24,173 bases of DNA from Psammoneis japonica. Its lineage: Eukaryota. Where the stretch lies: the NCBI GenBank assembly GCA_008632985.1, contig QPGO01000014.1, positions 820,289 through 844,461 on the forward strand. Direction: 5' to 3'. The notes beneath the pieces are model-generated. The model was not told the DNA's origin. It worked only from the letters and a program-made list of their open reading frames with translations, and searched no databases. The translations under genes were made by a program, and so were the position numbers. This document shows positions 1 to 24,173 of this stretch, piece by piece. Positions within the stretch are counted from its first letter, which is position 1. Every line of letters begins with the position of its first letter.

Positions 1-2
1 AT

Positions 3-3000: not shown

Positions 3001-6000
3001 CTACAGTGCCTTCAACAAGCCCATCAGCGGTCCCGAGTTTGGCACCAAGTGATGTCCCGTCGACTAGACCATCAGCTCAACCAAGTGACTTGCCTTCTGT
3101 GACACCGTCTATGGTGCCTTCGACAAGCCCGTCAGCGGTCCCGAGTTCGGTGCCAAGTGCTGTCCCGTCGACTGGTCCATCAGGTCAACCTTCGACAAGC
3201 CCGTCCGCGGTGCCGAGTTCGACACCCAGCGATATCCCATCAACTAGTCCATCAGCTAAACCAAGTGATGTGCCTTCTGTACAACCGTCTACAGTGCCTT
3301 CAACAAGCCCGTCAGCGGTCCCGAGTTTGACACCAAGTGATGTCCCGTCGACTAGTCCATCAGCTCAACCAAGTGACGCGCCTTCTGTGACACTGTCTAT
3401 GGTGCCTTCGACAAGCCCGTCAGCTTTCCCGAGTTCGGTGCCAAGTGCTGTCCCGTCGACTAGTCCATCAGGTCAACCTTCGACAAGCCCGTCCGCGGTA
3501 CCGAGTTCGACACCCAGCGATATCCCATCAACTAGTCCATCGGCTAAACCAAGTGATGTGCCTTCTGTACAACCGTCTGCAGTGCCTTCAACAAGCCCGT
3601 CAGCGGTACCGAGCTTGGCACCAAGTGATGTCCCGTCGACTAGTCCATCAGATCAACCAAGTGACGTGCCTTCTGTGACACCGTCTATGGTGCCTTCGAC
3701 AAGCCCGTCAGCGGTCCCGAGTTCGGTGCCAAGTGCTGTCCCGTCGACTAGTCCATCAGGTCAACCTTCGACAAGCCCGTCCGCGGTACCGAGTTCGTCA
3801 CCAAGCGATATCCCGTCAACTACTCCATCAGCTCAGCCAAGTGACCTGCCTTCTGTGACACCGTCTACAGTGCCTTCGACAAGCCCGTCTGCGGTCCCGA
3901 GTTCTGCGCCCAGCGATGTCCCGTCGACTAGTCCATCGGCTCAACCAAGTGATGTGCCTTCTGTCACACCATCTATGACGCCTTCAATACGCCCATCAGA
4001 AATCCCAAGTTTGGCTCCCAGCAGCATCCCGTCGACTAATCCATCAGCTAAACCAAGTGATGTGCCTTCTGTGATGCCATCATTGGTTCCTTCAAAAAGC
4101 CCATCAGCTGTTCCCAGTGCGGCTCCCAGTGATGTCCCATCAACTGGTCCATCCGTACAACCAAGCAACGTACCTTCTGTCACACCGTCAACAAGCCCAT
4201 CAGCTCTCCCGAGTTCCGCACCCAGTGACATTCCGTCTACGACTCCATCCGCTCGGCCAAGTGATGTACCTTCTGTTGCACCGTCGACCGTGCCTTCAAT
4301 TGGCCCATCATCAGCACCAAGTTCGTCTCCCAGCAATATCCCATCATTGAATCCATCTTCTGAACCGAGTAGGATGCCATCCTTGGCGCCTTCAACTGTT
4401 CCTTCAACAGCACCATCAGCAGTTCCAAGCGCGGTGCCCAGTAATATCCCGTCGACGACTCCATCCGTGCAACCCAGTAGCATCCCTTCTGTTGCACCGT
4501 CACCAGCACCTTCAATAAGCCCATCAGCTACCCCAAGTTCTGCTCCCAGCACTACACCATCCTTAGCGCCATCGAGTGTACCGAGCGCGTTTCCGTCTAG
4601 CTCGCCATCTTCAGAGCCGTCTAGCAGGCCGTCTGCATTTCCTTCGGCGGCGCCATCTTATGTGCCAAGTAGAGTTCCAACGGGAGTTCCTAGCGGCATT
4701 CCTTCCAAGGCCCCATCTCATTTACCCAGTGGTGTGCCATCTGTCTCTCCTTCTGCAGAACCCTCGGAAATGCCGTCAGGGGAACCTAGCAAAGGACCTT
4801 CGACAGCTCCTTCAGGCCTTCCTTCGAATGCGCCCTCCGGCGTTCCAAGTAGTATGCCCTCGGATAGCCCAAGTTCAATCCCGAGTAATGCTCCATCACT
4901 ATTGCCTAGTAATTTGCCGTCCCAAACTCCTTCATCGCTACTTTCGATGACTCCGTCTAATATTCCATCAATGGCACCAAGCGTCTTTCCGTCCATCCAG
5001 CCTTCTCATGACCCTTCCAGCGATCCAACAAGTGCTCCAACTCAGATGACCTCGAGAATGCCATCCGATAGTCCAAGTTCTGCTCCATCCGTCATGCCGA
5101 CCATCGCACCGAGCAGAGAGCCAACCTTGCTTCCAACCTCATCACCGAGCATTTCTCCGTCAAAAGCACCATCCCAAGCCCCCACCCTAGCTCCTTCTCT
5201 GCATCCAAGCAGCGTGCCATCAAGCTTGCCGACAGCGGAACCAAATGCCTCGGTGATATTCCAGATCTCAACGAATGGGACTGAAAATGCGATAATCAAA
5301 GTTGGTGAAACAATAAACTCAACCTACACCATCATCAACAACGGCAATGTGGCTCTTTCGAACATTAATCTCACTGACAACCGTGGCGTAACTCCCACCT
5401 ATCTTTTTGGCGACAATGACAATGACGGAGAAATTGACGTGAATGAAACGTGGGTCTTCGAAGCAATAGAGGTCGCCCAGTTTGGACCGCAGACGATTAC
5501 CGGGGTCGTGTCTGCAAGCATTAACGGACAAAACTTCACTTCGCAATACTCAACTTCATACTTGGGAGGGGTTCCATCTCTGAGCGTCAATCTTTCGACA
5601 TACGACGAGGAAACTCCAAAAGTGAAAGTTGGCGATCCAATCAACACAACTTACACCGTCACCAACAGGGGCAACGTGCCTTTATCGAACATTGATTTTT
5701 CTGACAGTCGAGGCGTGACCCCCACGTTACTTTCAGGGGATACAAACAATAACGAAGAGCTTGACGAGGGCGAAACATGGATATTCCAAGTTATCGAGTT
5801 TGCCCTGTCTGGATCTCAAAACATTACTGGAACAGTAACGGCCGAAGTAAATGGGGAGGTTTTCGAGACACAGTATTCATCTTCCTACATAGGCGCGTCT
5901 CCGTCGCTCAAACTCACTCTCTTGACAAATGGTTTGAATGAAGCGGGACCGATTCCTACTGGCACGGACATGGTTCGGATTTTCCTCGTGGACAACGAAG

Positions 6001-7784
6001 GTGATGTACCGCTTTCCAATATAACAGTCTATGACAATGAAGGAGCCACGCCGAATCGAATCCAGGGTGACGTCAATAAAAACGATTTGCTTGATCTTGA
6101 CGAACAGTGGTATTTGTACAACCCGGCAGGGCTCAACAGGGCCAGTTCATCAACACTGGATTTGCATCGGGCCTTTTTGGTAATGTAGTGGTAAGCGATG
6201 ACGACTCGAGCTCTTACCAAGGAGTGGGAACCGACGCGCCGACGGCTGGGCCCACGACTGCAACGCCAACAGGCTCGCCTTCGCGGCTGCCAACCACGGG
6301 TGAGCCAACCCCCCTTCCTACGATAGACCCCGATCCATCCATCTCTATTCAAGCAACAGGAAATGGCTTTGATATCCTAGTTATTCGCCAAGGCGAGACC
6401 ATTAAATGGAGGTATCGAATCGTCAACACGGGCAACGTTGCCCTGTCCAATGTTGTTGTTACTGGAGGCGCAGATTCGTCCGATCTTGTACTTGGTTCTG
6501 GCGATTTGAATTTCAATAATGAGCTTGATCCTGGCGAAATTTGGGAGTATGATGTTGATGGTGTAGCCGAAATGGTTTGTTTAGCGTCGTGGGAAAGGTT
6601 TCTGCAGAGTACAATGCTGCATCCCTTTCAGCGGTCGACTCGAGTTTGTACTATGGAATAACGCCGGAACCAGAAATTGGCATTCAAGAGGAAGCCGACG
6701 CTGTTCTCAATGTTACAAAGTACACAGTCACAAATAATGGAGAAAGCCCGCTTTCAGATTTGCAATTTACTCCCAAACAAGGTGTAGAACTACCAACATT
6801 GATCTCTGGGGACCTCAATTTTAACGGTGAACTTGATGAGGGTGAGAGTTGGGTATACGAGGCTGCTGGTGTTGCCAGTTACGAAGAAGAGCCGGTTCTT
6901 GTGACTGCCATGGCGGAAGCGGCACGGAGATTATGGCGGTTCCCCTTTCCTACCTACCCGCCGATCCTCCACCCCCACAGAATGCAGGGGTGGAAATAAC
7001 CACCGTCATAAATGGAGAGGATGGTTTGATTGTTCCTGTAGGAGAAGAGTTGATATTTGAGTATTACATCTTCAATTCGGGTGATGCCCCTTTGACCAGC
7101 ATTTCCGTTACGGAGTTGCATGCCGGAGTAAATCCTGATTTGATAAATTCAGACTTAGCTGGTGACAAAAGTAATGTTGCTCTAGAACCGGGCGCAACAT
7201 TGATCTATCAAGCGACTGCAATCGCCCAGGCGGGTCTGCAAGAGAGCGTGGGCGTTGTCACGGCAAGTTACAATGACAATGCAGTGTCCGATCAAGACCT
7301 GAGTTCGTATTTGGGTATTATTGGTGGAGAAGACCAAGGCTGTCAACCAAGCGTTTGGATTAAATCGAAGCAGGCTTGGCAACGCTATCGGCCAAACAAC
7401 AAGTTTGACACGGTGTTTGGTGTCGAGGCCTTTCCTCGCAAGAGCCTCAACAACGTCCTCGAGCAAAGCGGGTCGGGTGCAAAACAGGCACTAGGCAGAC
7501 AGGCTGTGGCTGCGCTTCTAAATTCGGCCAACAACAGGGTTTCTTATGGACTGTCGACCAACCATGTCATTCGTTTGGTCAAGCAAGCGTATGAAGCCCG
7601 AGACTATCATGAGGCAAAAGCGATGCTGAAGCGGCTCAACAAACGGACGTGTCCGTCTCGTATTGGCAGTGAAAATCTCCCGCCCACCCGACGTCCAACT
7701 CCTCGCAGAACCAGGCGACCGCGACGCAATAATCGTTCCAAGGGAGGAAAGGGTGGCAAAGGAGGCGGTGGCCTTCAACGGTAA
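3..7784 (+). CDS. Giant cell-surface/extracellular mucin-like adhesin candidate (>2500 aa, 5' end probably outside the window): N-terminal globular part, ~1500-aa PSxx stalk, six DUF11/DUF7507-like Ig-type repeats, a bacterial-type C-terminal domain and a basic/Gly-Lys tail
   Basis: The frame of ORF 147..6188 is open from base 3 (DETINILSSLENLKQ...), so ATG147 is probably internal. ORFs 6107..6661, 6577..6999 and 6849..7784 continue the same repeat-domain protein if one base is restored at each of ~6110 (tgg[g]ta), ~6572 (gaa[a]at) and ~6919 (gaa[a]gc). Recurrent motifs are Y-x-I/V-x-N-x-G-N-V-x-L-S-N and GDxNxNxELDxGExWxY/F. It ends ...RPTPRRTRRPRRNNRSKGGKGGKGGGGLQR-stop. Confidence 0.85.
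690..5240 (+). repeat. Coding tandem repeat: 12-nt (PSxx) unit with a 108-nt (36-aa) higher-order repeat in the homogeneous core (~1650-3960)
   Basis: Translation is continuous P-S-x-x. The unit PSTSPSAVPSSAPSDVPSTSPSDQPSDVPSVQPSTV recurs, and 'acaagcccgtcagcggtcccgagt' recurs at 108-nt spacing. Shorter PSGQ-containing variants are interspersed. Confidence 0.95.
5250..7320 (+). repeat. Six ~105-110-aa Ig-like (DUF11/DUF7507-type) domain repeats with acidic DxNxNxxLD loops
   Basis: The repeats start near ASVIFQISTNG, PSLSVNLSTYD, PSLKLTLLTNG, PSISIQATGNG, PEIGIQEEA and AGVEITTVING. Each contains NxG(N/D/E)xxLxx(I/V/L) and a (D/E)x(G/N/D)(E/A)x(W/L)x(F/Y) motif. A PT-rich linker lies between repeats 3 and 4. 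Family assignment is by motif recall, not a search. Confidence 0.7.
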
Positions 7785-8068
7785 AATGATGTGTGTTTTT
7801 GTTTTTGCATATCTCCATCTGACTAAGTAACATCTCGGGCATTGCCAATTATTCGAAGAAAGCTGACCATCTGACCATCCAAAGAAGCATAACAGCTAAC
7901 AATAGAATAAACTAAAGGCAATGCAAAGAGAGCATCAGGCAACATTCCAACAACAACAAGGCAGATGCGGCTTACGCTTCGCTTTCTTTCATGTGCGCTC
8001 AATCCGTCTTGGGTGCCCCCCCGCCCCAATCTGCACGCATCCACATGCCGCCGGTGCTGTACCGGGCC

Positions 8069-9615
8069 CAAGGATTTATAAGTCTGTCAGGATGTACAAG
8101 CTCCGGTACAAATCTACGCACGAGCCTGTTGCCATGCGTGGTACGAACACCGTTAAAATTTGTGCTGCGTTTTACGGCAGTCTACGTAGAGCTTCTGACG
8201 GGACGAACTTATCATTTATAAATATTCATGCACAAATATCATAGATACCTCGAAGACGAAACGTGATGGAGGGGAGAAAACAGACGGCACACGAAACGTG
8301 ATGGAGGGGGGATAACAGACGGCACGAAATGTGATGGTGCGGGCGGTGGCGGCGTACGTGGATGAAGACAGAGACGAAATGGAATATCAAATATGGTAGC
8401 TCTAAAATCTGCCGCCGATTGCCAATCAACCCAATGACTGATTGATTGTTGTAATGATGAGTGATGATGTATGCTGCTGTAGTTCGCCAAATTGTCATGT
8501 GTTTCGACAAGCGCTGATTCACGCTAATGATCCACTTTGGGGTCGCCCGCTGGCAAGGATACGCGTGACGCAAAACACACGATGCAAGCGTCTCGTCCAA
8601 AGCATTGTCCATTACTTGAAGCCCGAGAGAAGCACTAAAATTTTATGCATTGCCCCTCATCACTGGCCAAGAATCAAAATAAGACACCACCTAGATGGGA
8701 AAGATAGAGATGGAGAATGATATTGTTAGTTTGTTTGTCATGCCGGTACTGTAAATGCATGATGCATCAATACTGCTTTAAATGTAAACATACCTTATTG
8801 TACACATCCTTCAGAAGTAAACTGCACGAGATTCCAGCCCGCTCGCTCGCATTCCAATCGCAGAGTCTCCACGCCACCAAGATTTACCCCAGTTTTCGGT
8901 CCCCGAACGAGGGAGTACTACTAACCGGCACTCGGCAAGGTCATGGACGTCAATATCCAACCCATTGCACATTATAATTGTCATTATTCGTGAAAGTATC
9001 AACTGTAGCTTGCTTGGTTCAGTCCAAAAGAGAGCGTAGGACACACCACAGCCCCGTTCCGATATAAGGAAGAACATGAGTTGAAAAGAAATGGTGTCGA
9101 CACCGACACGAAACTATGAGATATTGTTCGTCCGTAGGGGTGATACATTGCTCAACAGCTTCTCTATATGAGTTATAAAGACGAACATGTCAAAAAAAAT
9201 GAGTGAGATGCCGAAACAAAAGCACAATATAATTCGATTGCGACAGAGAGCGATAATGAGTCTCGAACCGTGGTGTCAATACAAAATCCTTTTTCCACCT
9301 TACAATTGGCCGCTTACCTTCGAAAAAGCAACATAAGCTGTTTCTATATGGAGATAAAGACTAGTAGATAGCGTTGGTACTGTTGAAAGGATCGTCAATA
9401 GTCTAATAAGCGGCGCTCCGGTTATCATGGTGTGTGGTGCTTTGATGAAAATGATGCGCGATCCCTTGAAAAAATGAGGATATACAAAATATACATAAAT
9501 TTATTTATTTTAACGGCGGAGTTCGCACCGTCAAGATTACTTAGAGGCTGGTGACCACGCATGGCAACACGCGTTCTACGCAGCTTGTACATCCTGACAG
9601 ACTTATAAATCCTTG
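8069..9615. mobile_element. Non-autonomous cut-and-paste DNA transposon (1547 bp), hAT- or P-superfamily-like
   Basis: Perfect 34-bp TIR caaggatttataagtctgtcaggatgtacaagct at 8069-8102, with its reverse complement at 9582-9615. Identical 8-bp TSD accgggcc at 8061-8068 and 9616-9623. Further inverted blocks are tgttgccatgcgtggt (8127-8142 / 9554-9569) and ccgttaaaat (8150-8159 / 9507-9516). No transposase ORF is recognisable. Confidence 0.93.
8256..8340 (+). repeat. Subterminal tandem repeat (~33-35 bp x 2.5) inside the TIR element
   Basis: acgaaa(c/t)gtgatgg starts at 8256, 8291 and 8324. The first two copies continue with ...aacagacggc. Confidence 0.8.
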
Positions 9616-9627
9616 ACCGGGCCAATA

Positions 9628-11030
9628 CATCCAAAAAAATCTACCCTCAGTTCTACCCTGTACCGTAGAGAGTAGTACTCATCCTACGGGGAAGAAGACC
9701 AACCCGTAGCCATCAGTATAGAAGCTACGTGCTAGTAATCAACCTACGCAAACCCCACGCGAGGAGTTGAACCCGAAAAAAAACTCCAAGACGAAGCGAG
9801 CGACGCTCAAAAAACACCGCGCCCTCACCTTGACCATGGCCTTTGAATGGTTGTGTTTGCACTCATTACAAAGCCCGCATTTTGGGCGTTTGATGCTTTT
9901 TTCTGAGGCACAGCTTTTCTCTCACTTTTTCTATTGTTTTGTGGTCGCTCATAGGTCTACCCGGCACCCATTGCAGCGACGGCATGAACACCGCTAAGGA
10001 TCAATATGACTATGGAAAAAAATGATGCTTGCAGTGGATTTGTTGCTGCTCCTCACCTCTTGGGTGTTTCGCGACTTTTGCTCCCAGAGAGGACACTGAC
10101 AGGACTGCCGCGTCTGACACAGTGGCATTCATAATCAAGCTCGGCTTCGGACTGCAAAGGTAAGAACAACAAAATTTGCTAATAATAATGTCGAATATGT
10201 GATGGAAATGTTTGTTTGTTGTACACATCTCATGTTTTGTGCGTTTGATGATTGTCAAGTGTGGCGCAGTTTTTTCCTCACAGTTTCTCCTGTCTCGCCG
10301 TCGCTGACAGGCCCACTCGGCACCCATTGCAGCATAGGTGCCAAGGTGAATACGGACCAAATAGTTATAAAAAAATGTATCTCAAGCCAAGGATGCGGAA
10401 CAATCTATTTAAAGATCAACGGCAGCAACCCTTGGTCGTGCCTTCCGCGCTAGGGAGCAGCTTGTTTTCTTCTCAAGCTGGTGGAAGTGCAATGAGGTGC
10501 TGATTGTTCCTTAGGCTAATGCAATTGTTTAGTAATATTTAAATATAAAATTCACAACAGTAATCTCAAATAGGTGCTTTAGAGCTTGTCAAAGTTGAAA
10601 GTAGTGCAAGTCGTTCGTCTGCTTTCCCACAGGGAGTGTGAAGGTTTCTACTGCACTCAGGACGCCTGTGAGTGCTGCTTGCCATGCCACCATAGATGCA
10701 GTTGGCATTGGTGCAGTTGCCGGGGTTGCATACGGCAACGCTCATGGTTGAGATGCCGCATTGAGACGAGTAGAACTTTCGAGTATTTTTTTTGTTCCTC
10801 CCGTCGCACTCGACATCACGCACCAAGGACAGACTGTTTAGATCGCGCGAAAGGGGCGCGCAGGGTAGAATTTTTGGCTCCGAAAATTCTACTGTACCTT
10901 CTACCTGAGTGGAATAAACAGTGGATGTACGGTAGATCTTTTTAGAAGATGCCAACACCGTATTGACATTTTTACATACGAGAATTCCACTTTCCAGTAG
11001 AAAAATGCTACTTGGGTAGAATTTTGGGTG
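9628..11030. mobile_element. Probable second non-autonomous TIR element (~1.4 kb) with a TA target-site duplication (Tc1/mariner-like ends)
   Basis: The left end ta|catccaaaaaaatctaccc (9626-9646) resembles the reverse complement of the right end gggtagaattttgggtg|ta (11014-11032), which reads ta|cacccaaaattctaccc. Clusters of TCTAC/GTAGA motifs lie at both ends, e.g. ttctaccctg 9651 and cagggtagaa 10861. The TIR is imperfect and no transposase is seen. Confidence 0.5.
9907..10333 (+). repeat. Diverged ~70-bp direct repeat pair
   Basis: 9907-9977 (ggcacagcttttctctcac...gtcgctcataggtctacccggcacccattgcagc) aligns with 10263-10333 (ggcgcagttttttcctcac...gtcgctgacaggcccactcggcacccattgcagc). Confidence 0.7.
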
Positions 11031-11069
11031 TAACGGTGCGGCACATCGAATCTCTAGAGAGCAGAGAGT

Positions 11070-12540
11070 GCGCCTGTGGAGGCCGTCACCAAAATGCAAA
11101 AGGATGCAATGTGTGCAAAACAAGCAGAGCAGCATTGCTGAAATTTTAATTGAATGTGAGCGAGGGAAACACACCTTGTTCCATCCATGAGGCTCAAGAA
11201 TCCATCCGCGGATGACTGCCAGATGTCCCCAATGGGAAGACAGTGGTGTCAGCCTGCCTGTCCTGACTCACACGCCCCACAAGTGCTCGCTCAACCCAAG
11301 TCAGCAGCTGATGTGAGGCAAGATGACTCTGCCACAAACACCTTGCACCACACCACCACCCACAACAAACATCTGAGACAGTCAGAACCCAGTGCAAGCA
11401 TGCAGGCCTGGTGCCAGAGCTCAGGTTCTGAACGTTGCATGTCATCACACCCTTGTGGGCTCCAGCTGTGCAATCACACAAATTCTGAACTGCACACATC
11501 TCACTTTTCACCCCATTTTTCATCTCTTCTTTGACAAAAGACAGTGCGCTGTTGTTTGTTTGCAGGACATTGCAGCCATTGCTGGCAGCAGCACGCTTCT
11601 TGTTTTGTTTGATGATGTTGTTGGCGTGCTCCCAGAGTGTGCTGGTGGCAAAAAGATGTGCAATTTTCTGAGCATCGTTGTGCAACTCTGATTCTCTGTT
11701 TCCAATGAAATGGTGTCATTGGGGAAGTGCAAACAATTGTCAAAAACAAAGAGTTTGAAGTGGAGCAAAAACTTTGTGTGGGTCAAAACACACTTCAAAA
11801 TGTTTTCAATTTGTTGTGTGATGCCAGTGATGGAGCAAATTCACCTTTTTGTTGCTGACAAAACAGTGTTGTTTTGACAAATGGCATGTCATTTTCATTG
11901 TGATGTTTTTTAAATGCATTTGTTGACTTTGTGATGCACAACTGTGCCACCTTGAAGATGTGCACCTCAGCAGCCACGACCCATGCTGTCACAGAACCAC
12001 AGGACAATGTTGGCTGGTGCCACATGTTGGTTTCCGATTTTTAACCTTTTGGGAAAACAGCTTGGCAGCCTCATGTTCTTGACAAGCATTTGTCTTCTAC
12101 CTGCCCTGAGATGACTGCAAAATGATTGGATGAGCCACTGCAATTAGAAAGTTTGTTTCCTCCTCCTGTTGGCACAAACGGTGAGGTGCTCACAATGCTG
12201 CATTTTGACACAACTGAGCAACCACAAAGTCTGCTCAAAATGGCATGATGCAGGGGCAGAAGTCACTGCCACTGCTCCTGCCTGGGTGGACAGTCATTTG
12301 GTTCAGGACAGTGTTGTTCCTTTGTTGTTTGATCCACTTCGGTGGGGCAGCACCGGACAGTGGCACCAACCTTGGCCAATCATCACAACATGTTCCCACT
12401 GCACAATTCTGTGTGTCGCTGGTGCAGGTTAGCGTGTTGCCAGAGTTGCTGGGTAGAAGCATTGCAGCAGCACCTAAAATGTGGACTTTGTTTCTTCTTG
12501 TGTGCCAGGCGCCACGTGTCATTCCAGTCCTTTGCGTGAG
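11070..12540. other. TpA/CpG-depleted, TpG/CpA-enriched hypermutated block (degenerate repeat or pseudogene relic)
   Basis: Manual count gives 8 TpA in 11101-12540, six of them in YTAR context. Overlapping Cys/His-rich, essentially Tyr-free spurious ORFs occur on both strands. Normal TpA density resumes at ~12553. Confidence 0.85.
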
Positions 12541-12653
12541 CTCTGGTGCGAATTATGTTGTGGGTAGTTTTAGTTGTCAAGCACTAACACGCAAAATAAA
12601 GTACCAGGCATTAATTTCTAACCGGCAAGCAAAGGAAAATGTTATTGAGTCTC

Positions 12654-14550
12654 TCAAGGAGAGGCAAAGGTGCTGAAAAATGTTTGCCATTCGGGTTCTG
12701 CCAGAATTGTCTTAGAATCAATCCAACAATAGATTTTCCTGTTGACCTTCTTGTCAAAACGCTTTCGAAGTTTCTCTGGACGTTTCGGATCTGGCGCTCC
12801 CAATTCAGCATGTTGATCCAAGGCAAGTGATTTGGTGAACAAGTCATTTAGAATGCCGTCTTCTGGACAAAGCATGCGCAAATCCAGAGCGGTTTGATTC
12901 ATTTTTTCTTGATGTTTCATTATTGCATTGATAACATTCGGTCGACTCCACAATGTGGTATCAATCAGGCCCGCCCGATTGGCGTCCAATGCCAAACCGC
13001 TGTAATACAGCCAATGAATGTTGCCCTTGTTTTCAACAGATTTTGAGCCTCCTTCAGCGTCACGTCGCATAATTTCCTTGCATGAAGCGGGAGCAGCACC
13101 CTCAAGCATGTCACACACAAATGCCGAACGCAATCCCTTGGGGTTGTTCAAGTCCAGAACTTTGACAGGGAAATACTTTGAAGCCATGTCCACTATAGAA
13201 TCAGTAAACCAGTTGAGCGTCGAGATCCAACCGGTATATACGCCCCAATCGTTGTTTTTGTCTGCAAACAGTGGTTGCACATAATGCTTTTCGCCCTTGT
13301 CGTCTATCCACGGAAACCTTTCGTCATAGCTCAACTCAGATGATTGCCACCAAACAGAGGGCACCCATTCAAAATATGGTCGATAGCCACTAATAATGCT
13401 GACGTCCCAGTCCTCCTTGGTAATTTGATATAGTTTTTCGTACTGTTTTTCATCATGTAATAGGACGATTGAATACCCTTCCTTAGATAGAATGATGTTC
13501 CTGCCGTAGTGTTTAAGATGGTCTAACTCTTTCGCCCAAAGGTCAAAAAAGTTTGATCGTCAAAAGGAATGTTACTCAATTCAGTACCCATGACCGTGCC
13601 ATCCTGAAACGTGTGTTCTTCATTCACATAATGCCAATTGTCTTGTTCCAAGAACCCATGCCAAGCCAATTCGGTCAATGCAGCTTGGACTGTAGTCGTT
13701 CCCGTTTTCGGAGGTCCAACGTGTAAAACAAGTCGTTGCTTTCTTTTGGATTTTGCGACTTCAACCTTGTCACTTGTCTCAAAAGATTGTTCATCCTGAA
13801 TTAGATTTGCATTACTGACAGGCCTCAAATCATTTCGCTTTTGTTTTGGCCGTTCTCGCCACCTATCGTCTCCGGCAATTTCGCATCAAGAGCCATGTTA
13901 GTAGGCGCCCCAGGTGGTGTATCTTGTTCATCTTTTGTCATGGACGGTTTCACGGCTTCTACCGCAACAGCAGGGTTCAAGTCGCTAGCTTCCACAACCG
14001 CGGGGGCAGGAGCACCAAGAGGTGGTGTATCTTGTTCGGATTGTGCGACTTCAACCTTGTCACTTGTCTCAGAAGCTTGTTCATCCTGAGTTGGATTTGT
14101 AGGTACTGCTGCTGCATCACCCGCACGCCTCAAATCGTTTCGATCTTTGTTCTCACCAGCTATCGTCTCTGGTAATTTCGCATCAAGAGCTATGTTGGTA
14201 GGCACATCACGTGGCGTATCTTGCTCGTCTTTTTTCATGGACGTTTTCACGGCTTCCACAACAGCAAGGTTCAAGTTGCGAGCTTCCGCAACCGCGGTTT
14301 GTTCATCCAGTTCCTTTTCTCCAGCTGTCGACTCAGAAGTTGGTGGATCAACGGGGGTATCGCCAATTGCTGCAAAAATCGCTCCGATCTGTTCTGTGGG
14401 ACGCAGGCATGGAAACGAAGGCACAATTGGAGCTCCAGCTTGTAGAACCAATAGCTGAGAGTGCAGGATGATGTGCAGCACAGCACCTGCATATAGCGCC
14501 AAATAAAGAAAGTGTTTCGAGAAACGTCGGTTTGCTGTTTGAAATGTCAT
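12654..14550 (-). CDS. Type II membrane-anchored sulfotransferase-like (P-loop) protein with a duplicated acidic stem; two apparent frameshifts
   Basis: ORF 13825..14550 has an N-terminal hydrophobic anchor (HFLYLALYAGAVLHIILHSQLLVL). ORF 13523..13828 has RLVLHVGPPKTGTTTVQ, a PAPS-binding-loop-like motif. After a shift at the homopolymer ~13545-13550 the frame reads FDLWAKELDHLKHYGRNIILSKEGYS...WDVSIISGYRPYFEWVPSVWWQ and joins ORF 12654..13364. The shift at ~13838 is supported by the intact first repeat copy (ENKDRNDLR). Confidence 0.75.
13750..14300 (-). repeat. Internal ~100-codon tandem duplication in the stem of the sulfotransferase-like gene
   Basis: Two copies of AV.EA..LN.AV.VEAVK.SM.KDEQDTP...PTN.ALDAKLPETI.GEN...RNDLR...QDEQ..ETSDKVEVA.S. 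Confidence 0.85.
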
Positions 14551-15263
14551 GGCTGAACAAGAGGCGTTGACGACAAGAACTCGCCACTCCTCTGCGTTTC
14601 TAAAACTTGCGCTTCCAAGAGCGGTCGGTGTTCACGGTTGCACGCACCCTCCAACCTCCAACCCAATCGCAGAAAGCAGTCCTCTTGCAGATTAACGGCT
14701 AGACGTACACTCGTTATCGATTTTGAATATTACAGTATATCCATTTGGTCAATCAATGTGCTAAGAAATGAATACATATATATCATTTATAACATCTACG
14801 TAAATAATTGTGTCAAATACTATTGAGATGACATTGATTCACAACGTCCGTCACGCGTGCGTCGAACGAGAACTGGTCTTCATTCATCCTGTCTTCGTTG
14901 CGCGTGAACGGAGCACGGAGCGCTTATTAGTACTTGCTTTTTGTGCTACACAGTACACAGTGTAACCGAATGAAACCTTACCGGTGCATGCCATATAACT
15001 TTTGTTGGTCACAATTGGGCACACAAAGTCGGTGAGCGACCAGCGAATTACAGACATAAATGCAATTTGATTGGCTCAAAATACAGCCTGATATGAACTG
15101 AACAACGAGCAGCGCACGAAAGGTGAGTCTTTGCTGGGCGATGATGGACGCGCAGTCTCCTTTTCAACTGCCTTTCTTATAGAAAGGAACCTTATTTTTT
15201 CATTGTTACTTGATCGCTGCTTTTCTAAAACTTGCCGTTTTTTCAAGACATTCTTTTGCGACC
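14551..15263. promoter_or_regulatory. Divergent (head-to-head) intergenic promoter region
   Basis: Lies between the minus-strand ATG at 14550 and the plus-strand ATG at 15264, with an AT-rich core at ~14720-14840. The call is positional inference only. Confidence 0.4.
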
Positions 15264-17189
15264 ATGAGTAATCTTCTTGGCTGCAGAGAACAAAAGACAA
15301 GGAAGCTTACCGCAGACGCTCAACTGCAGTTCGAAAATGAGCAGGCAAGGCTTGTAGCTCGCGAAAAACGCAAAAAAAGTCGAGCTGCAACTGCGACAAG
15401 TATAGCAGCAGGTACAGCTTTAGTTGCGCCGGCTATACGGGACACTGGCTCTAAGAAGAAATCACCCACAAACAGCTCGGTAGTAGACAGCCCCGTTGTA
15501 GTTGATGCATCTGAGGGAAAGAGCTCTGAAGATGATGCTTCTCGGGATGTATCCTCGAACCTAGAAAACGCCTCAAGTGACTTGGGCAAAGGAAGGAGGA
15601 CAAGAAAACTTACCGTTGAAGCGCAGTTGCAACTTGAAAATGAGAAAGAAAGGCTTTTAGCTCGCGAAAAGCGCAAAAAAAGCCGAGCTGCATCTGCGGC
15701 AAGTACAGCAGCAGGTACAGCAGTAGTTGCGCTGTCTATGAGGGACACTGGCTCTGAGAAGAAATCACTCACAAACGGCTTGGTAGTGGACAGCCCCGTT
15801 GTAGTTGATGCATCTGGGGGAAAGAGTTCTAAAGAGGTTGCTTTTCGGGACGTATCCTCGAACCAAGAAAACGCCTCAAATGTCTTGGGCAAAGGGAAGA
15901 GGACAAGAAAGCTTACCGCGGAAGCGCAGTTGCAACTTGAAAATGAGCAGGCACGTCTTGTAGCTCGCGAAAAGCGGAACAAAAGTCGAGCTGCGGCAGG
16001 TACAGCGGGCGGTGGCGGCGTTGACAGTGCTGTCGACGGTGGCGCAAGAGACAATACGGCGAAACTCAGTTCCAGAAAAAGAACTGAATCAGACAGAAGC
16101 CCAGATACCGGAGCGCAGAAGATGCCCGCGTCCAAACGCCAACGCAAAACAGCAAGCGTCAAAAAGCCGCGAAAGACTGCTCCCAAACTAGTCGGAAATA
16201 GTACGACAGAATCGGAGAACGACGAGGGCAGCGAATCCACTTCCAGCGCGAATACACCCCCCGCAGCCGTGGCAACCAACGGGATAACGATTGACTTGTC
16301 GTCAACTCATCAACCAGATCCCATGGTGACGTTGCTCGCTCATGAGAATGCGCTCAAAGCGCAGCGAGACGAATTACAGAGAGAGCATGCCGTTCAGATT
16401 GCTTTTTTGAAGCAAAAGCACCAGGCTGTAATTAATGCACTAAGGGACAAACTCGAGCAACAGGAGTTTGACAAGCGCAGGAAACTAGTGGCGAGAAACG
16501 ACAAACTGCAAGCCGAGCTGGCCGAAAGCAACAAGAAACAAAAGGCGGACGCAAGGAAAGTCAAAAAGATGGAAAGAGAACTCGAGCAGCTAAAAGATGC
16601 AGACAATGGAGATCCGCGAAGGCGAAAGCGCAAACTGAGTGTCAAAAACAGTCAGCTCTGGGACCAGCGATTTGAAGAGCTAAAAGCCTACAAAGCTTCT
16701 CATGGAACCTGCCTCGTACCAACAACACAGTACCCGGAGCTTGGTTATTGGGTTTCTCGGCAAAGGACGAACCAAAAATTGTATGCGAGTGGAAAGGAAT
16801 CCTCAATTACATCCGAACAAATTCAGAAACTAGACAGCATTGGAATGGTTTGGGGGAACCTTCTTCATCGCAGTGTGTCGTGGGAAGAACGGTACCAGCA
16901 ATTACTCGATTACAAGGCAAAACACGGGCATGTCCGTGTTCCTCATTTGCTTAAGGAGCCTCACGGTCTTGGAGAGTTTGTGCAAGCTATGAGGAGCGCG
17001 TACAAGTCTCTAAACAACAATGACTCTACCTCGAAACCGCGGAAAATAACGCCGGAACAAGTGGAGAAGTTGGAAGCAATTGGATTTGAATGGTCCCTTC
17101 GCACGAGGGGTACCAAAGAGAAGCACAGACTTGCCGCGTCACTGGAGGAGTCGCAAGAGATTATGGAGGAACCTTTTCCTTTGCATTGA
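15264..17189 (+). CDS. Helicase-associated (HA, PF03457-like) domain protein with two C-terminal HA domains, a coiled coil and N-terminal repeats; probably nuclear
   Basis: Intact ORF, first ATG at 15264. HA motifs are WDQRFEELKAYKASHGTCLVP...LGYWVSRQR...QIQKLDSIGMVW and WEERYQQLLDYKAKHGHVRVP...LGEFVQAMR...QVEKLEAIGFEW. NLS-like basic runs include PRRRKRK and SKRQRK. No helicase motor motifs are present. Confidence 0.9.
   Translation: MSNLLGCREQKTRKLTADAQLQFENEQARLVAREKRKKSRAATATSIAAGTALVAPAIRDTGSKKKSPTNSSVVDSPVVVDASEGKSSEDDASRDVSSNLENASSDLGKGRRTRKLTVEAQLQLENEKERLLAREKRKKSRAASAASTAAGTAVVALSMRDTGSEKKSLTNGLVVDSPVVVDASGGKSSKEVAFRDVSSNQENASNVLGKGKRTRKLTAEAQLQLENEQARLVAREKRNKSRAAAGTAGGGGVDSAVDGGARDNTAKLSSRKRTESDRSPDTGAQKMPASKRQRKTASVKKPRKTAPKLVGNSTTESENDEGSESTSSANTPPAAVATNGITIDLSSTHQPDPMVTLLAHENALKAQRDELQREHAVQIAFLKQKHQAVINALRDKLEQQEFDKRRKLVARNDKLQAELAESNKKQKADARKVKKMERELEQLKDADNGDPRRRKRKLSVKNSQLWDQRFEELKAYKASHGTCLVPTTQYPELGYWVSRQRTNQKLYASGKESSITSEQIQKLDSIGMVWGNLLHRSVSWEERYQQLLDYKAKHGHVRVPHLLKEPHGLGEFVQAMRSAYKSLNNNDSTSKPRKITPEQVEKLEAIGFEWSLRTRGTKEKHRLAASLEESQEIMEEPFPLH
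15285..15995 (+). repeat. 303-nt (101-aa) tandem repeat x ~2.3 in the N-terminus of the HA gene
   Basis: TRKLTx(E/D)AQLQxENExxRLxAREKRxKSRAA occurs three times, with 'cttaccg' at 15306, 15609 and 15912. Confidence 0.9.
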
Positions 17190-17753
17190 TTGGGTGATGT
17201 ATTTGGAACGGCCAACTGGAACAACGGCTTACGATTCAACGCGTTTTCAACGAGTCGACAGGGAACCCTGGTAGAGTGTTGTGTAATTGGATCGGGGACG
17301 TGTGGGGAAAAACAGTCGAAAAAGGGAGAATGTTGTCCAACGCAGAAATTCTAGAGGCTTTGGGCTAGAAGAGCAAACAGCTTGCAGTTCAATTGAGTAG
17401 CAGCACGGGATTCCATATGTTTTATCGGCTTATGCCTTTGTGCAATTCAATCATAATTGATGCTGGTTGCCCGGAAGAAGAAAACATAGATTTCACGTTG
17501 GAGCCATCGTTTTGCTTGTGTCTCGCTTTCTATGCCTGGTGTTCGTACAATCTCGTTCTCTAGTTGGTTTCATGTTGGCTAAACGTTCGTCCTTGTAATT
17601 GATTGGCTGTGTTCAGGTAAGCGCAAAAGTATTGGGACGACTCGTTTCGAGATTCAGGAGTACACCTGGGCCATCACGCATCGACATGTCTGATTTGAAT
17701 CGAGCACTGCCTCTTTGCTACGTCTGTTTGTACTTCATTTCGTGAACCCGTCG

Positions 17754-19369
17754 TCATTTCCGTTTGCGAAACGACCCTACATTCCAGCTACACTTCAGCT
17801 CTCCTCCGATCCATTTCAAGCTCATCCTCGGCTGCTTCCAGAAAACCACCAAAACTTCGTCATCCTCTTCTTTCTTCAAATCATCAGCTTCACCAAGAGC
17901 CAATAGCTCATCTTCTTCATCATCCGAAAGAACGTCGGAGCCAGGCGGAGCTTTCATGATGCGTTTCGTCTCCTCGAATTCCTCCTGGGCCGTCTCGATC
18001 GCTTCAACAAGACGTTCGTTGCGTTCCTCTAGTGTCATGGCCGCTTCCTCCTCAGCGCGTTTTCTCGTATCAGCTTCATCCGCTTCTTCTCGAGTAAAGC
18101 CTTCATCTGGCAATATGAAATCGTCAATTCTACCTTTAGCAAGATTCTTGTACGATATCGGCATGACATCTAAACAGTACATCCACCTCATGGATGCGGC
18201 ATTCGTCTCGGCGATAAGCGTATTCACAACCAGTGGGTCGTCACCCGCCAAAAGTTTTCATTGTGAAAGGGATCAAGGAATCGCTTGGCAAGATCAAAAG
18301 ACCTTGAAAGCACAATGTCATGAGTCCGGATCCCATGAGAGTCAAAATAGCGACGATCCTCGAGTCACAGCAACAAAGGGATACATCCACAAGACGGCAT
18401 CCACGAGGACTTGGACAAAGTGAGCATACGCAAACGGCATGCGACCCTTGAGAACAGATTCCATCGAATTGCCTTGAGCCCGAATTTCCTGTATTTTGGT
18501 AAGCAAAATTTGTTCAAAACCAAAGCCACCATCAATAATGCCAGCCTTTTGACCTTCCAGTACGAGTCGCAAGATCCACATTAAAACCGCATTGTGACGC
18601 TGATTTGGCGGAATTTTCGCTTCAATCAACAGAGATCGTTCCTGCGTTGTCATGAGTCCTCGTGAAACCATTCGCCTCATCCCTTGAGGCGTCAAGAGTG
18701 GTCGATGCGAGCGAGTCAGAGACGCGTAGACCAATATATTAAAGAGTCGGATATACCGAGCCGTGATTGTCAGGGTCCGTCGAGCATTTTCAGAAAATGT
18801 GGAACTTCCAGGAGGAGTTCATCCGAGCGCTGGCTAAAGCCTGCAAGCGCCAATATCAAATCATTCATTTTCCCTTGCAGAGCTCTACATGTCTGTAGAC
18901 AAGTGCGCCAGATTTTGTAGGACTGATTGACAAAAAAGGTCAACGTGAAAGTCGTCACAGATAATACTTGCATGTAAAGCGAGGAGAATTCTGTCAGAGC
19001 ATAATGAAACAGCGGCGTCCGTTTCATGCACACGTATACCGCAACAGCCCAGAGAGTACCTCGGAGGCAAGAAACCCACGTTTCTGCAAATACGGTTCCT
19101 CTGTATTGACTCCACATGGCTTTACTGGAAGGCTCAAATTGAATCATAATGGGTCGACGGCCACTGGTTCTCAAACAATCATCAAGAATACCATCTAGAA
19201 TTTCTTTGGTAGATGTCTGTTCCATAAGGATTGGCTCTATGTTGAGGACTCGTAAGCTGCTCGAGAGTCGTGACGAGTGACATGTAGAAAAGGCCTCCAC
19301 AGTAGCAGTGCATAGGAGAAGCATCCAAGGCGACATGAACACTCGTAAACGACAACATCGTGCCTTCAT
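17754..19369 (-). CDS. Plastid-targeted bestrophin-like (UPF0187/BST-type) anion channel; several apparent 1-bp frameshifts
   Basis: ATG 19369 gives MKARCCRLRVFMSPWMLLLCTATVEA|FSTCHSSRLSSSLR, a signal peptide + Phe + Ser/Arg transit peptide. Bestrophin-like motifs are TTFTLTFFVNQSYKIWR, ARYIRLFNILVYASL, MPFAYAHFVQVLVD and FQGLFDLAKRFLDPFHNE. The frame is restored by single-base additions at ~18820, ~18358, ~18297 and ~18250. A further one at ~17855 would give the end SFGGFLEAAEDELEMDRRRAEV with a stop at 17788. Confidence 0.82.
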
Positions 19370-20344
19370 TCTTGCTACAACTTGCAACAAACAGAGAGAC
19401 TAAAGACAACACAACATTGGACATTGCGAGAGAACCGAGAACCGAAAAAAAAAAACAAAGAAGATCATGTTGCGGTTTCAGTCACGAGTATCCAAGAGTA
19501 AAATTGCCGTCCTGAGATTTTTTCGAATTCTTGAGCGAAAAATGCATTTTTTGAGTGCAAGCACCTGGCTTTGAGTGCAATCCCCAATGGGAAACAAAAG
19601 CAGGCTGGAACTTGAAATGGAGGTGGCAAGCTTTGGCTTTTGTCACCAAAGGCTTTGTGTGCACTTCAGAGACACAAACCCAAGTTAAGATTGTGTGTTT
19701 GAGCATTTCAAGGCCTCACCATTTTGCCCTTGTCAGCTGTCACTTGTGATTTTCCAGAGGCCCATCTGGTCAAGGTGTTTGGGGGAGCTCCTCAAGGTGA
19801 GCACCATGAGAATTGTGTGCACTGAGCCATCATTCTGAAAAAGCACCTTCATGGCAAGGAAGATCTGTTGCCCCAGGACTTGAAGACACACACACCCAAA
19901 GGCATGCACTGGGTCTAGCGTGGGCCTGCATGTGGCCAACTGCAAGATGCAGTTTGATTGTGAGGCACCACAAGTGCTTGGCGGGGGTTCCGTCTCACAA
20001 AATCATGACAATTGTCAGGCCAGGCCAATTTGCAACCCCGATGGGATGATTCCAAGCTTGCGGGGCAGTGTGTTGCAATGGTGCGTCGCAGCACTTCTGC
20101 TCTTTTTGTTTGTGGTGAAGTGGCAGTTCCAGGTCTGTCACATGCACGGCAATCCCACTGTTGCAAATTAAATTGTCCTGTTGTGATTTCAGTTTGGCTG
20201 TCTGTGAACAACAGGGGAGCTTCGCTTGTTCTTTCCCGTGTTTGTGCTGTGAAGGTCACTCATCTGAGTCTGTGTTGGCCTTGAAGGACCCATTCTTGAT
20301 TGACCCAATGGCGAGTGGCAAGGATTGTTGAGCACAAAAGTCCT

Positions 20345-21211
20345 TCATCCATCCCCTCTGTTTCCAATTCTTTCACCCAACAGGACATTGTTGCAGCCAA
20401 GAAAAAGGGAGCAGCAAGTTTTGGCCACGTCATCGTCCTCCGACACATGGCACGCTTCAACGCTGTCTTTGATTTTCTCACAGAGAGTCTCTGCATGGGC
20501 CACGGCATCATTGCCGACTTGATTGGATTCACCAAGTGGGACAGCCCTGGATGTGATGTTGCTGAAAAAGGAAAGGGTCAAGGATGACAATGCCGCCTCG
20601 GCCAAGTTGGAGCATTTCTTGTTGCTGACACTGGCCCAACAAACGGAAAAAACAGCATCCACCCAGGTGTTCAAGGCGCTCGGATGACTGAATGCATGGC
20701 TCTTGATGCATGTTGCAGCAACAGACTGCATGTCTGTCTCCACCAAGCCACACTCATTTTGACTCCGATGCATCCAAAACCTGTGTAGAATCCAAGCCGT
20801 GTGCAAGATTTCAACACCCTCTTGGAGTCTTTTCATGATCTTGCAACTGTCATCGTGCAAGAGGAGGCAAATTGCATTGTTGAATCCATCGGTGTGGTTT
20901 GCAGCTTGATGGGCAACAGCACCATCCATTTCTTGAGTTGCAAAGTCAAGCTCATCAAAGGTTTCACGTAAATTGTTGAGAGGCATTTGCATGATGCCCT
21001 TCACAGCGAGAACAAGACACTTGGCATTGCATTTGATTTTTTCTTTCATGTGCGGACATGCATGTTTGTGGCCACCACATTCCCAGTCTTGCAACTGACA
21101 CTCTTTTGAGCAGCAGCAAGTGGAATGGCAATTGCTGCATTTGAACCGGCTGGACACCTTGAAGCATCGACAACACTCGGGTGGCACAACCGGCATCAAA
21201 TTCAAGAACAA
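20345..21211 (-). pseudogene. Hypermutated MYND zinc-finger gene relic
   Basis: CCRCFKVSSRFKCSNCHSTCCCSKECQLQDWECGGHKHAC matches the MYND consensus CxxC...CxxC...YCSxxCQxxDW..HK..C, but the conserved Tyr is Cys. There is no Tyr in 288 codons, with excess Cys/His. Confidence 0.8.
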
Positions 21212-21467
21212 ACAAACGTGTTGCGATCATTTGCACTTCAGAATTTTGGATTTCCAAAAAAATCATCGCCGCATCAATTTCAGTGACGACCGTTAAACTG
21301 TGTCCCATTTGCTGTGTTTTGCACATTTTTGAACTTGTTCATGAGAAGTGATGGTCACCATGATGTGATGGTGAAAACAGAAATGCATCTGTGCATTGTG
21401 AATGCTCCCCATGAAGAAACCACAGGTGAATGATCATGGCTTCCCCACTTTTTGCGGGCAGTGGTCA

Positions 21468-22478
21468 TCAACGGATCTTTTGGCATGTCTTTGAAAGAGT
21501 TGAAATCGTTGATGTTGGGTGCCCCCCTTGTTGCATCAACGTCTTCATTTCCATCCATGCGTTTTTTGTGCTAGAGAGCGCACAAAAGAGCAGTTGGCAA
21601 TGTGATTGGCATGCAAAACAGAAGGTTGATGAGTGAATGAGATTGGCGTGACAGTGCAAACAAAATCTGGAGAATTCAGGATGGATTGAAGAATGAAAAG
21701 GACCAAAGCATTGAGAAGCATTCATGCTGGTCAATTCAATGCAGCCATTTGCCAGGTGAGTTTGTGTGAAAAAATGACAACTCCTCTCCAGTGTGCTCAG
21801 AATGCAGACATGAGGAGAAGATGATTTTGTGTTCTCTCTTCCCAAACAAGAAGTCATGGTGCCATCCAAGATTCCATCTGGCAGACCTTGTCTTTTGTTC
21901 ACACTGCCCCAGGAGACCCATGCTCCATTGTTGACACTGCCCGCGCCTGCAATTAGACACATGCAGAGTCATTCAGCTTGACCACCATGTGCGCCAATTC
22001 CAGTTTGCGTGGATCTTTTGCTGCTTTGAAAAATCAAGAATTGCATCTCTCTTCCCAACAAGGGCTTGGGTGCAGCAAAGTGATTCAAAGCAGCGTCAGA
22101 AGCATGGCATGACTCGATGAGCTCGTCCCAATGGGCCTTCTTGGTGCACTCTTGAAATTTCTGGATCTTTTCCCGTGTCCTTTGTTCAGCAGATGACGTT
22201 GTGTTTTCTTTTTCAGTTTCTCTCTCTTCTCAAGTGTCCGAAGGATTTGTTAAAGTTGGAGGCACTTTTTCAAGAATGGACTGTGTCTCCCTCACATTCT
22301 TTCCCAGTTCCCATGCATGATTGATGCTGCACGCTGTCACATTTTGGCTGCACTGTGCTTTGTTCAAACAGCAAAGAGCAAAAGCCACAAAATTGCCAAC
22401 TTGACTGCAATCCTGATTGCAGCTCGATTGCGAACCGCAATCAAAACAATTGCAATCTGCTGATTGTTTGTCTGGCAC
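21468..22478 (-). pseudogene. Second degenerate reading frame of unknown product with in-frame TGA stops
   Basis: ORFs 22230..22478 and 21468..21962 are in the same frame. The gap reads SDT*EERETEKENTTSSAEQRTREKIQKFQECTKKAHWDELIES...GGQAE*LCMCLIAG, which is protein-like with TGA plausibly from CGA. Long open frames are cheap here because TAA/TAG are nearly absent. Confidence 0.4.
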
Positions 22479-22733
22479 TGGTCACAAAGATCACAATCGT
22501 GTTCACAATCAATTGCAATTGATTCGTGTCTAAAATTTTGTTGTGAATCAGGATTTTTGGCAAAAACGGGACCAAAAATCAACCGAAACGTGGTGTTCAT
22601 TCACCAGAAATGCGTTCTTGCATTTGTCAAGTTGTTTTCTCACCATTTGTTGCTGCCATGCCAATGGATCTGATGCTTGGTGCTGAGGTTAGAAAAGTGG
22701 CAGAGAAGTGTCAACACCCATTGGCACAGTGCC

Positions 22734-22932
22734 AATGCTGGGGTTGTCAAAGTCACAGAGTGTGTGGAGTGTGGAGCCCTCAAGAAGAGAGTCAGAGCTG
22801 GAAAATGTGGTGGCTGTTGTGGTTGTTTTGCTCAACAATGCTGGGATTGTCAAAGTCACAGAGTGCATGGGGCCTTTGTGAAGAGAGTCAAAGCTGGAAA
22901 ATGTGATGGCTGTTGCAGCTGTTTTGCTCAAC
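22734..22932 (+). repeat. Tandem duplication (~103 + 96 bp) within the hypermutated block
   Basis: aatgctggg(g/a)ttgtcaaagtcacagagtg...aagagagtca(g/a)agctggaaaatgtg(g/a)tggctgttg..g.tgttttgctcaac at 22734-22836 and 22837-22932. Confidence 0.9.
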
Positions 22933-24173
22933 ATCAAGCATGACATGGAAAAAGCAGCGCATCATCAGGAGCAGCACTTGAAAATGGCAACTTCATTCAG
23001 CCAGGGATGTTGGTCAATGCAAAGTGTCAGAAGTTGGCATCTGCTGCTCCTTGTGATCACCTGCTCCATTTTGTGGGTTTGGCTCATGCAGGTGCACTTC
23101 AAACACAGGAAGGTGAGCCCAAGCAGAAAGCCATGGTCTCATGACATTGGTCTGCGGTGTCAGAGTTGGGCCCACATTTTTAACCCCAAAGCTGCTGAAT
23201 GCAAACAAACCCAAAGTTGGAACAAGCATGTCAACATTGGAGCCAACCACAAGTTGATGCCAGCAAATTTGGGTTTTGGTCCAGGACACGGAGCCTTGCC
23301 CTCATTTTCACAATTTCATGAAGACTTCTCTGACAAAGTCTTTTTGCATGCATGGCCAATCCATCAACATGGGCAACAGGTTCAAAGTTGATGCAGAAAA
23401 AGTTTGTTGTGTTGTGTTGTGTTGCAACAGGTCCAAAGTTGGAAGCAAAGCTGTGAGCTGCAAAAGCGAGCACACAAAATGAAGGCTTGTTTTTCACCTG
23501 CGTTCCAATTTTTTGCTGCAGAGGTGAGCAATGTTCCCAAATGTCTTTGCACTGGGAGCTTTGTCAACATGGAAATGCTGTCATCTTGAACAGCCAAGCA
23601 CTTCTTCACAGATTCCAACAGGTCTGCAGTTCGCAGCTGTTGCAAGACATTGCTTGTTGGCTGAAGGTCTGAAATCCAAGGCAGTGTCTGGAGCCTTGTG
23701 CTGCACATCAGCGGTGGTTTTGGGCTGTTGTCAGTTGGTGCAGCCAAAGGAGGCAAAACACAGGATGTCTCTTTTGTGGAAGCAGCCAGGCAGAAGCCAC
23801 CAAGGAAGAAAACAGTCACTCACCCTCTTGAGGCAACAAGGTTTTTTTCAAAAAGCGAGACAGATCTTGCTTCTGCCACTCTCAAAGTTGTGTCTGAAGC
23901 CCCTGCTGTGAGAACCCAGCCAAGCAAGACAGCTGGAAAAGCCACTTTGGAAAACAACAACAACCAAGCTGGTGCTGCATGAAAAAAACTCTTGGAATGG
24001 AGTGCTTTGTTTTGGCAAGGGGGGGGGGGGCATTCTTTTCTCGTCATTGTTCATGCTGACTTGCCCAAACTGCATGTTTTCCAGCGGCTGCACTTTTTTT
24101 AAATTTTCACTTGTCAAACAACTTGCTTGATGCTGTGCAAAACAAGTGTGCCACCCAGGGCTGGCCAAAGTTG

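Follow-up and report, generated by a model that had tools for sequence, protein, structure and literature searches.

The locus raises the question of why one short island of DNA has lost nearly all of its TpA steps, between an untouched transposon and a gene of normal composition, and of what sets its edges. It lies in a 24,173-nt stretch of contig QPGO01000014.1, referred to here as the window, and island coordinates are window positions. Our main reading, to which we give a probability of roughly 0.7, is that the island is a small silent domain on old repeat DNA, where TpA steps alone are converted from A:T to G:C by a host process.

A dinucleotide count of positions 11070-12540 gave 8 TA in 1,471 bp, an observed/expected ratio (o/e) of 0.08, where 58 would be expected at the window background of 0.58 (Poisson P = 2 × 10−16). 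The island of eight TpA steps described in a first-pass annotation, made from the sequence alone, is thus real; the lowest TA counts in any 1,471-bp stretch were 36 within window positions 1-11000 and 39 within 12600-19400. The same interval held 22 CG (o/e 0.26), 182 TG (1.90) and 167 CA (1.91). GC content was 0.48 in the island and 0.50 outside, so there was no GC shift. Maximum likelihood placed the TA change points at 11056 (support 11036-11171) and 12426 (support 12376-12551). The earlier view of a locally targeted process, rather than an isochore effect, is supported. The CG change points lay inside those for TA, at 11291 and 12336, with wide support. As a whole, the island (11056..12553, no strand assigned) comprises a core at 11295-12335, where TA and CG are both lost, and margins of approximately 240 and 220 bp that are richer in CG. 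Seven CG were kept in the 239 bp of the left margin (P = 0.012 versus the core) and eight in the 218 bp of the right margin (P = 0.003), compared with eight in the 1,040 bp of the core. The edges had been called sharp, which stands for the located TA change points but less so for the margins, where approximately 200-240 bp have lost TA yet hold more CG.

The right part of the island, at 11923..12505 on the forward strand, derives from a non-LTR retrotransposon (LINE), of which it is the decayed 3′ end. It was identified by nhmmer with a profile built from 28 of 30 fetched copies, which matched 12336-12490 at E = 4 × 10−22 and 11940-12317 at E = 2 × 10−9; the island aligns with the last 650 positions of the profile. 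Its right end has 22 matches elsewhere in the 91-Mb genome, nearly all in TpA-poor DNA, and the C-terminal frame of the LINE has at least 86 genome matches, with 84 of 847 candidates scored. Pfam analysis of the family identified an upstream APE endonuclease frame (PF03372, E = 5 × 10−8 in L059), and the decayed frames of L059 gave a weak zf-RVT match (E = 0.04) and no match to RVT_1. Homology among the copies ends at approximately 12500, and the 3′ end is common to 21 loci. The family thus has the features of a LINE, namely an ORF2 with an APE endonuclease, a shared 3′ end with a simple tail, and 5′ truncated copies. A paralogue of the neighbouring gene, on contig C81, is adjoined by the same LINE end within an erased block of its own, so the insertion is older than that duplication. 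One LINE copy, L082 on contig C356, retained much of its TpA (o/e 0.35-0.53), the value being approximately 0.1 in most of the 30 fetched copies.

The remaining erased DNA (11037..11922, no strand assigned) has 2 TA in 865 bp. For these approximately 880 bp, no second match was found in the genome's contigs, a transition-tolerant alignment performed no better than shuffled sequence, tblastx and blastn against 182 fetched loci returned nothing convincing, and Pfam analysis of two frames gave no match. Either this part is a repeat decayed beyond recognition or the domain has taken in host DNA. The supposition that the island is repeat-derived holds at least for the right 580 bp or so, and the LINE ends close to the right edge.

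The left edge of the island coincides with the right end of element B (9616..11036, forward strand), a young non-autonomous DNA transposon with 24 long matches of 77-99% identity. Element B measures approximately 1,670 bp elsewhere and carries a 250-bp deletion in the window copy. It has TA at both junctions, and by this rule we take it to be Tc1/mariner-like. Element A (8069..9615, forward strand), a young non-autonomous element with terminal inverted repeats (TIRs) and an 8-bp target duplication, sits in the left end of B. A full-length relative of A encodes a P-element-type, TNP-like transposase domain (PF21787, E = 1 × 10−7); from the TIRs, the duplication and this transposase, A presumably belongs to the P-element superfamily. 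That relative (L189:5045-9715) has a 1,557-codon frame and normal TpA, and is a candidate for an active P-type transposon that escapes erasure. In the window, 4 of 72 TA sites were lost from B and 1 of 98 from A, so that 3 kb of multi-copy repeat directly adjoining the island is untouched. At the junction itself (11037..11043, no strand assigned), two TA steps present in other copies, as judged from the junction letters of 10 of them, read TG and CA here. The erasure thus acted after insertion or at the insertion site. In the window copy of B, two changes near the edge are common to L096 and L097 and the junction letters are common to L097, so some of these changes may be inherited rather than local. 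The junctions at 11037-11043 and in L093-L104 often place B within a TA-(3 bases)-TA motif, which in our view resembles mariner excision footprints.

To the right, a gene at 12654..14631 on the minus strand has normal TA and CG, consistent with the statement that neighbouring genes are spared. Its frame stops at 12654, 114 bp from 12540, which agrees with the island having been placed close to that stop codon. The gene is present as described; the support for calling it sulfotransferase-like is slight (Sulfotransfer_4 in Pfam, E = 0.01, below the cut-off), with no PDB match and with all atlas leads under 0.9. It is split in three frames, and contigs of sequencing run X1 show one-base indels where the frame breaks, so the splits are probably one-base assembly slips. 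Relative to its paralogue, the gene has changed at 10/39 TA, 8/44 CG and 11/86 AT, a comparison confounded by synonymous sites.

A larger erased block (19500..24173, no strand assigned; 13 TA in 4,633 bp, o/e 0.04) is a repeat mosaic that reaches the contig end. Its TA change point at 19500 (support 19402-19562) lies 131 bp upstream of the ATG, at 19369, of a bestrophin-like gene (18342..19369, minus strand; Pfam Bestrophin, E = 3 × 10−8), as had been proposed. A CpG-rich repeat of approximately 430 bp, found at 22389-22622 and in L031-L044, has copies that lose TA before CG; between L031 and L038, 6/9 TA and 7/54 CG were changed. Two further TpA-poor patches, of approximately 1 kb and 2 kb, lie in L053, 10 kb before the window. 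Imperfect tandem repeats are visible in the translations of window positions 1600-3800.

The copies of element B provided a record of the mutation, and changes were scored against the majority state of the young copies. In the first 1,410 bp, TA had become TG or CA at 52/70 sites in L098, 48/70 in L099 and 51/70 in L100. Other A/T to G/C changes were found at 0/732, 3/733 and 7/733 sites, respectively, giving 151/210 TA sites against 10/2,198 other A/T sites for the three copies pooled. The change is therefore directional and specific to TpA. It is also strand-symmetric, the products in five copies being 130 TG and 126 CA. The base 3′ of the step had a marked effect when each strand was counted (TAC 111/190, TAT 75/170, TAG 44/172, TAA 28/146; P = 5 × 10−15), and of the 21 survivors in the erased DNA of the window, 15 were TTAA or CTAA, versus 120 of 994 in normal DNA. 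CG had decayed at 7/77, 5/77 and 4/77 sites in the same three copies. Simulated CpG decay alone leaves a TA o/e of 0.44, and many LINE copies have a TA o/e of approximately 0.1 with CG at approximately 0.9. The change from TA to TG/CA is thus separate from CpG decay, and the loss of CpG is a second, slower process that lags behind the loss of TA.

As to chemistry, a change from A:T to G:C at TpA that affects both strands and outpaces CpG decay would arise if adenine were deaminated in transiently single-stranded DNA by a TadA/ADAT-type enzyme and the resulting inosine were copied as G. We put this step slightly below an even chance. ADAT2-like and TadA-like genes are among five matches in the genome; ADAT2 and TadA are ordinary, widespread tRNA enzymes, and the local ones would be tied to the erasure only as candidates. 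The preference for TAY at this locus fits such a deaminase, because TadA-derived editors, which likewise convert A to G, are reported to favour a 5′ T and a 3′ pyrimidine (YAY; PMC10188366). The strict TpA specificity seen here is, however, tighter than the YAY preference of these editors, which also hit CA, and the natural substrate of TadA/ADAT is tRNA. Same-strand pairs in heavily erased copies numbered 45/105 (47.5 expected) and 25/53 (22.8 expected); this lack of strand coordination gives no support for long processive deamination tracts. Strand-coordinated bursts were considered from the lightly hit copies, where 6 of 9 close pairs were on one strand, and were discarded, as the heavily hit copies matched chance. 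A further candidate enzyme is suggested by the reading frame of L171:319-1791 (contig C79), in which a cytidine/guanine-deaminase-like domain shares one frame with a 2OG-Fe(II) dioxygenase, an unusual fusion.

A different enzyme could act with the same targeting. A Pol iota-like Y-family polymerase, engaged in short patch synthesis of methylated silent DNA (for example, in the repair of deaminated 5mC), would put G opposite template T just after template A. The 3′ rule, restated as a next template base of G>A>C>T, would suit an enzyme with its best extension on template purines. One genome protein is closest to Pol iota among solved structures (E = 2 × 10−26, versus 2 × 10−14 for kappa and 1 × 10−12 for eta), and two Pol eta-like proteins are also encoded. 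First hits were clustered: among 39 private changes, 9 pairs lay within 30 bp of each other where 2.2 were expected; this suits patch synthesis but may also stem from position effects. Mammalian Pol iota is reported to insert G opposite T more often than A (PMC3031609). Such a polymerase leaves unexplained the untouched other T sites, of which none of 732 had changed in L098, and we regard it as unlikely; a literature search on diatom Pol iota returned nothing useful.

Alternatively, a modified base at TpA in silent DNA, either an oxidised thymine or a modified adenine, could miscode in the way that 5mC does at CpG. TpA is palindromic like CpG, and a loss that is strand-symmetric, domain-bound and not strand-coordinated is what a mark with independent decay would leave. 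We know of no modified-base mark at TpA, and the rate of TpA loss is several-fold above that of CpG decay. No TET/JBP match was found in the genome's contigs, a result that shows little, as the control query was equally without a match. We consider this explanation rather improbable.

The edges were analysed in 43 copies of A and B, with the reference copies left out. TA loss was under 10% in 19 copies, 30% or more in 21 and between these values in 3, and copies 97-99% alike ranged from untouched to approximately 60% erased. The end test was limited to the 21 copies with at least 30% TA loss, which had 29 scorable ends. Beside erased flanks, 22/22 ends were erased (245 sites lost, 33 kept), although these are not all independent, since the pairs L107/L109 and L113/L114 look duplicated. 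Beside normal flanks, 5/7 ends were spared (13 sites lost, 80 kept; P = 2 × 10−4 versus the erased-flank ends). The two erased ends beside normal DNA belong to L108 and L135, with borderline flanks (o/e 0.29 and 0.39). L135 was not taken to prove that a domain can be nucleated by the element itself, erased DNA being present 500-800 bp from its right end. At the B junction, TA was changed in 7/8 cases with an erased flank, including the window copy, and was retained in 12/12 scorable cases with a normal flank; two junctions carrying other changes were not counted. The last 260 bp of L098-L100 kept 53/53 TA, and the first 244 bp of L133 kept 19/19 while 69/79 others were lost. These spared ends face outward-pointing open frames of at least 300 codons that start 33, 263, 45 and 187 bp off. 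The idea that the right end of B or the left end of A contains an intrinsic barrier was rejected, because the same ends are erased wherever the flank is erased, and they are therefore not immune by sequence. Erasure depends on position, not on having copies.

In the reading that we prefer, the target would be silent chromatin, with silent and active judged from open frames. The silent domain would be able to extend across element borders and would stop short of active promoters and gene ends by 100-320 bp or more. An element that has only just inserted would at first be unmarked, leaving a temporary sharp edge such as the left edge of the island. The silent DNA is probably CpG-methylated, because the same DNA later loses CpG. 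Diatom transposons are reported to be methylated by DNMT5 (PMC9998398). Decay of 5mC at CpG and the loss of TpA are common to the same DNA and probably mark the same silent domain; the former, which turns CpG into TG/CA, is slower, lags behind within borders that are narrower, and is unable to deplete TpA. Several copies of one C5-methyltransferase gene (L178-L180; contigs C301 and C297) lie in TpA-erased DNA and are themselves erased, with intact relatives in L175 and L181.

The first-pass annotation had proposed targeting at near-element resolution, guided by homology, small RNA or chromatin. The resolution was not borne out, since the boundary lies approximately 250 bp inside the element in four copies and the left edge of the island is the junction with an untouched young transposon. 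The right edge of the island is near the LINE end; erasure boundaries elsewhere can fall within elements. Among the proposed guides, chromatin fits, DNA homology does not, and small RNA may act as the seed of silencing. A homology-guided process that reads repeats at element resolution, akin to RIP (repeat-induced point mutation), is very unlikely. It is true that the erased DNA is mostly repeat DNA with an edge near the LINE end, that the genome has 27 C5-methyltransferase matches (PF00145, not sorted into families), and that diatoms are reported to carry DNMT4, which is related to RID (PMC9998398). RIP, which depends on RID/DNMT4 in Neurospora and other ascomycetes, also resembles the present process in that dinucleotide-specific transitions saturate transposon DNA and spare genes. 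Its timing is before meiosis. The end test largely refutes homology guidance, however, because near-identical B copies range, depending on location, from untouched through half erased to fully erased and 19 of the 43 copies are nearly untouched, so that near-identical copies do not suffice. Nor do they seem to be required: flanks and junctions are hit, and the left 880 bp, without a detectable homologue, is erased. The polarity is also opposite, as RIP is described as a C to T change that creates TpA and needs duplicated DNA (PMC2621366, PMC7882544), and the island has instead lost TpA (o/e 0.08) with no AT enrichment. Plain CpG decay, isochore structure or the editing of retroelement RNA or cDNA, which would account for the depleted CpG, the excess of TG/CA and the retroelement in part of the island, is scarcely credible and is refuted by the B-copy site counts, the strand balance and the CpG-decay simulation, with GC unchanged and with DNA transposons, junctions and flanks hit on both strands.

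Recent action of the process was apparent between haplotypes. A contig of run X1 covering 11211-13102 differs from the island at 9 letters (8 events), all of them transitions; two are CG/TG, and TG/CA and TG/TA occur once each, the latter in a TAC context. In neighbouring normal DNA, X1 showed 10 differences in 5,877 bp, of which 6 were transversions (P = 0.003). The erasure process still distinguishes haplotypes. X1 and a second run, X2, come from a single sample, from which the assembly itself may have been made; X1 therefore probably represents the second haplotype and does not count as independent support. No empty-site allele was seen in X1 or X2, from this one sample.

In the closest published case, from Bigelowiella natans (Mettrop et al., bioRxiv 10.64898/2026.01.13.699255), integrated NCLDV and virophage DNA is hypermutated at TpA only; a de novo rate approximately 1000-fold above background, active in only some lines, was reported and ADAT2 was proposed as the enzyme without a test. 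The two cases share A:T to G:C change at TpA only, on both strands and confined to regions, together with long-term TpA loss with TG/CA gain and transposable element domains among the TpA-poor genes. Single-copy DNA can also be hit, and the B. natans target is single-copy, which is a further point against a RIP-like process. In our data, the changes were confined to regions of mobile DNA and genes were spared, with no homologue found for the left 880 bp. The island process is a variant of this once-reported B. natans-type hypermutation. It differs from the B. natans process, for which the de novo measurements came from two large viral inserts in a rhizarian and the regional TpA o/e was approximately 0.45; here kilobase-scale LINE and DNA-transposon domains are almost completely erased, the edges are at base level and the 3′ base has an influence. 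Diatoms, stramenopiles and trinucleotide context are not mentioned in the main text of the preprint. No description of TpA erasure in diatoms was found in the literature covered, which leaves out most subscription journals; the accessible portions of PMC10661471 and PMC12344493 added nothing on TpA.

It is tentatively possible, at somewhat less than an even chance, that diatoms and chlorarachniophytes have in common a mutator dedicated to genome defence. Silent chromatin, and not sequence homology, would recruit this mutator, which would convert A:T to G:C at TpA with a preference for TAY, spread over element borders as far as an active promoter and, incidentally, remove mariner-type TA target sites. 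The TA-(3 bases)-TA motif of B is one such target that TpA erasure would remove. If true, this would represent the first natural case of a eukaryote whose own chromosomes are edited under chromatin guidance, either by a DNA adenine editor or by an equivalent based on Pol iota. The B. natans preprint, the sole published case found, leaves open what aims the mutator. The present loci, where a given sequence is erased at some positions and spared at others and boundaries lie approximately 250 bp inside elements by gene starts, amount to a natural experiment that makes the choice between homology and chromatin testable at named loci, and they supply a context fingerprint for enzyme matching and extend the process to a second major lineage. 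Erased DNA also loses TAA and TAG stops and tyrosine codons, which leads to false long reading frames and distorts the dating of transposons.

Run X2 looks like RNA, judging from GT..AG skips at 15120-15244 and 10158-10308. None of its contigs lay on the island or the sulfotransferase-like gene, which gives no evidence either way on their expression. The first skip indicates an intron at the start of a gene at 15183-17189 with two helicase-associated (HA) domains. The second, of 151 bases, falls within element B, and some copy of this non-autonomous element seems to be transcribed and spliced.
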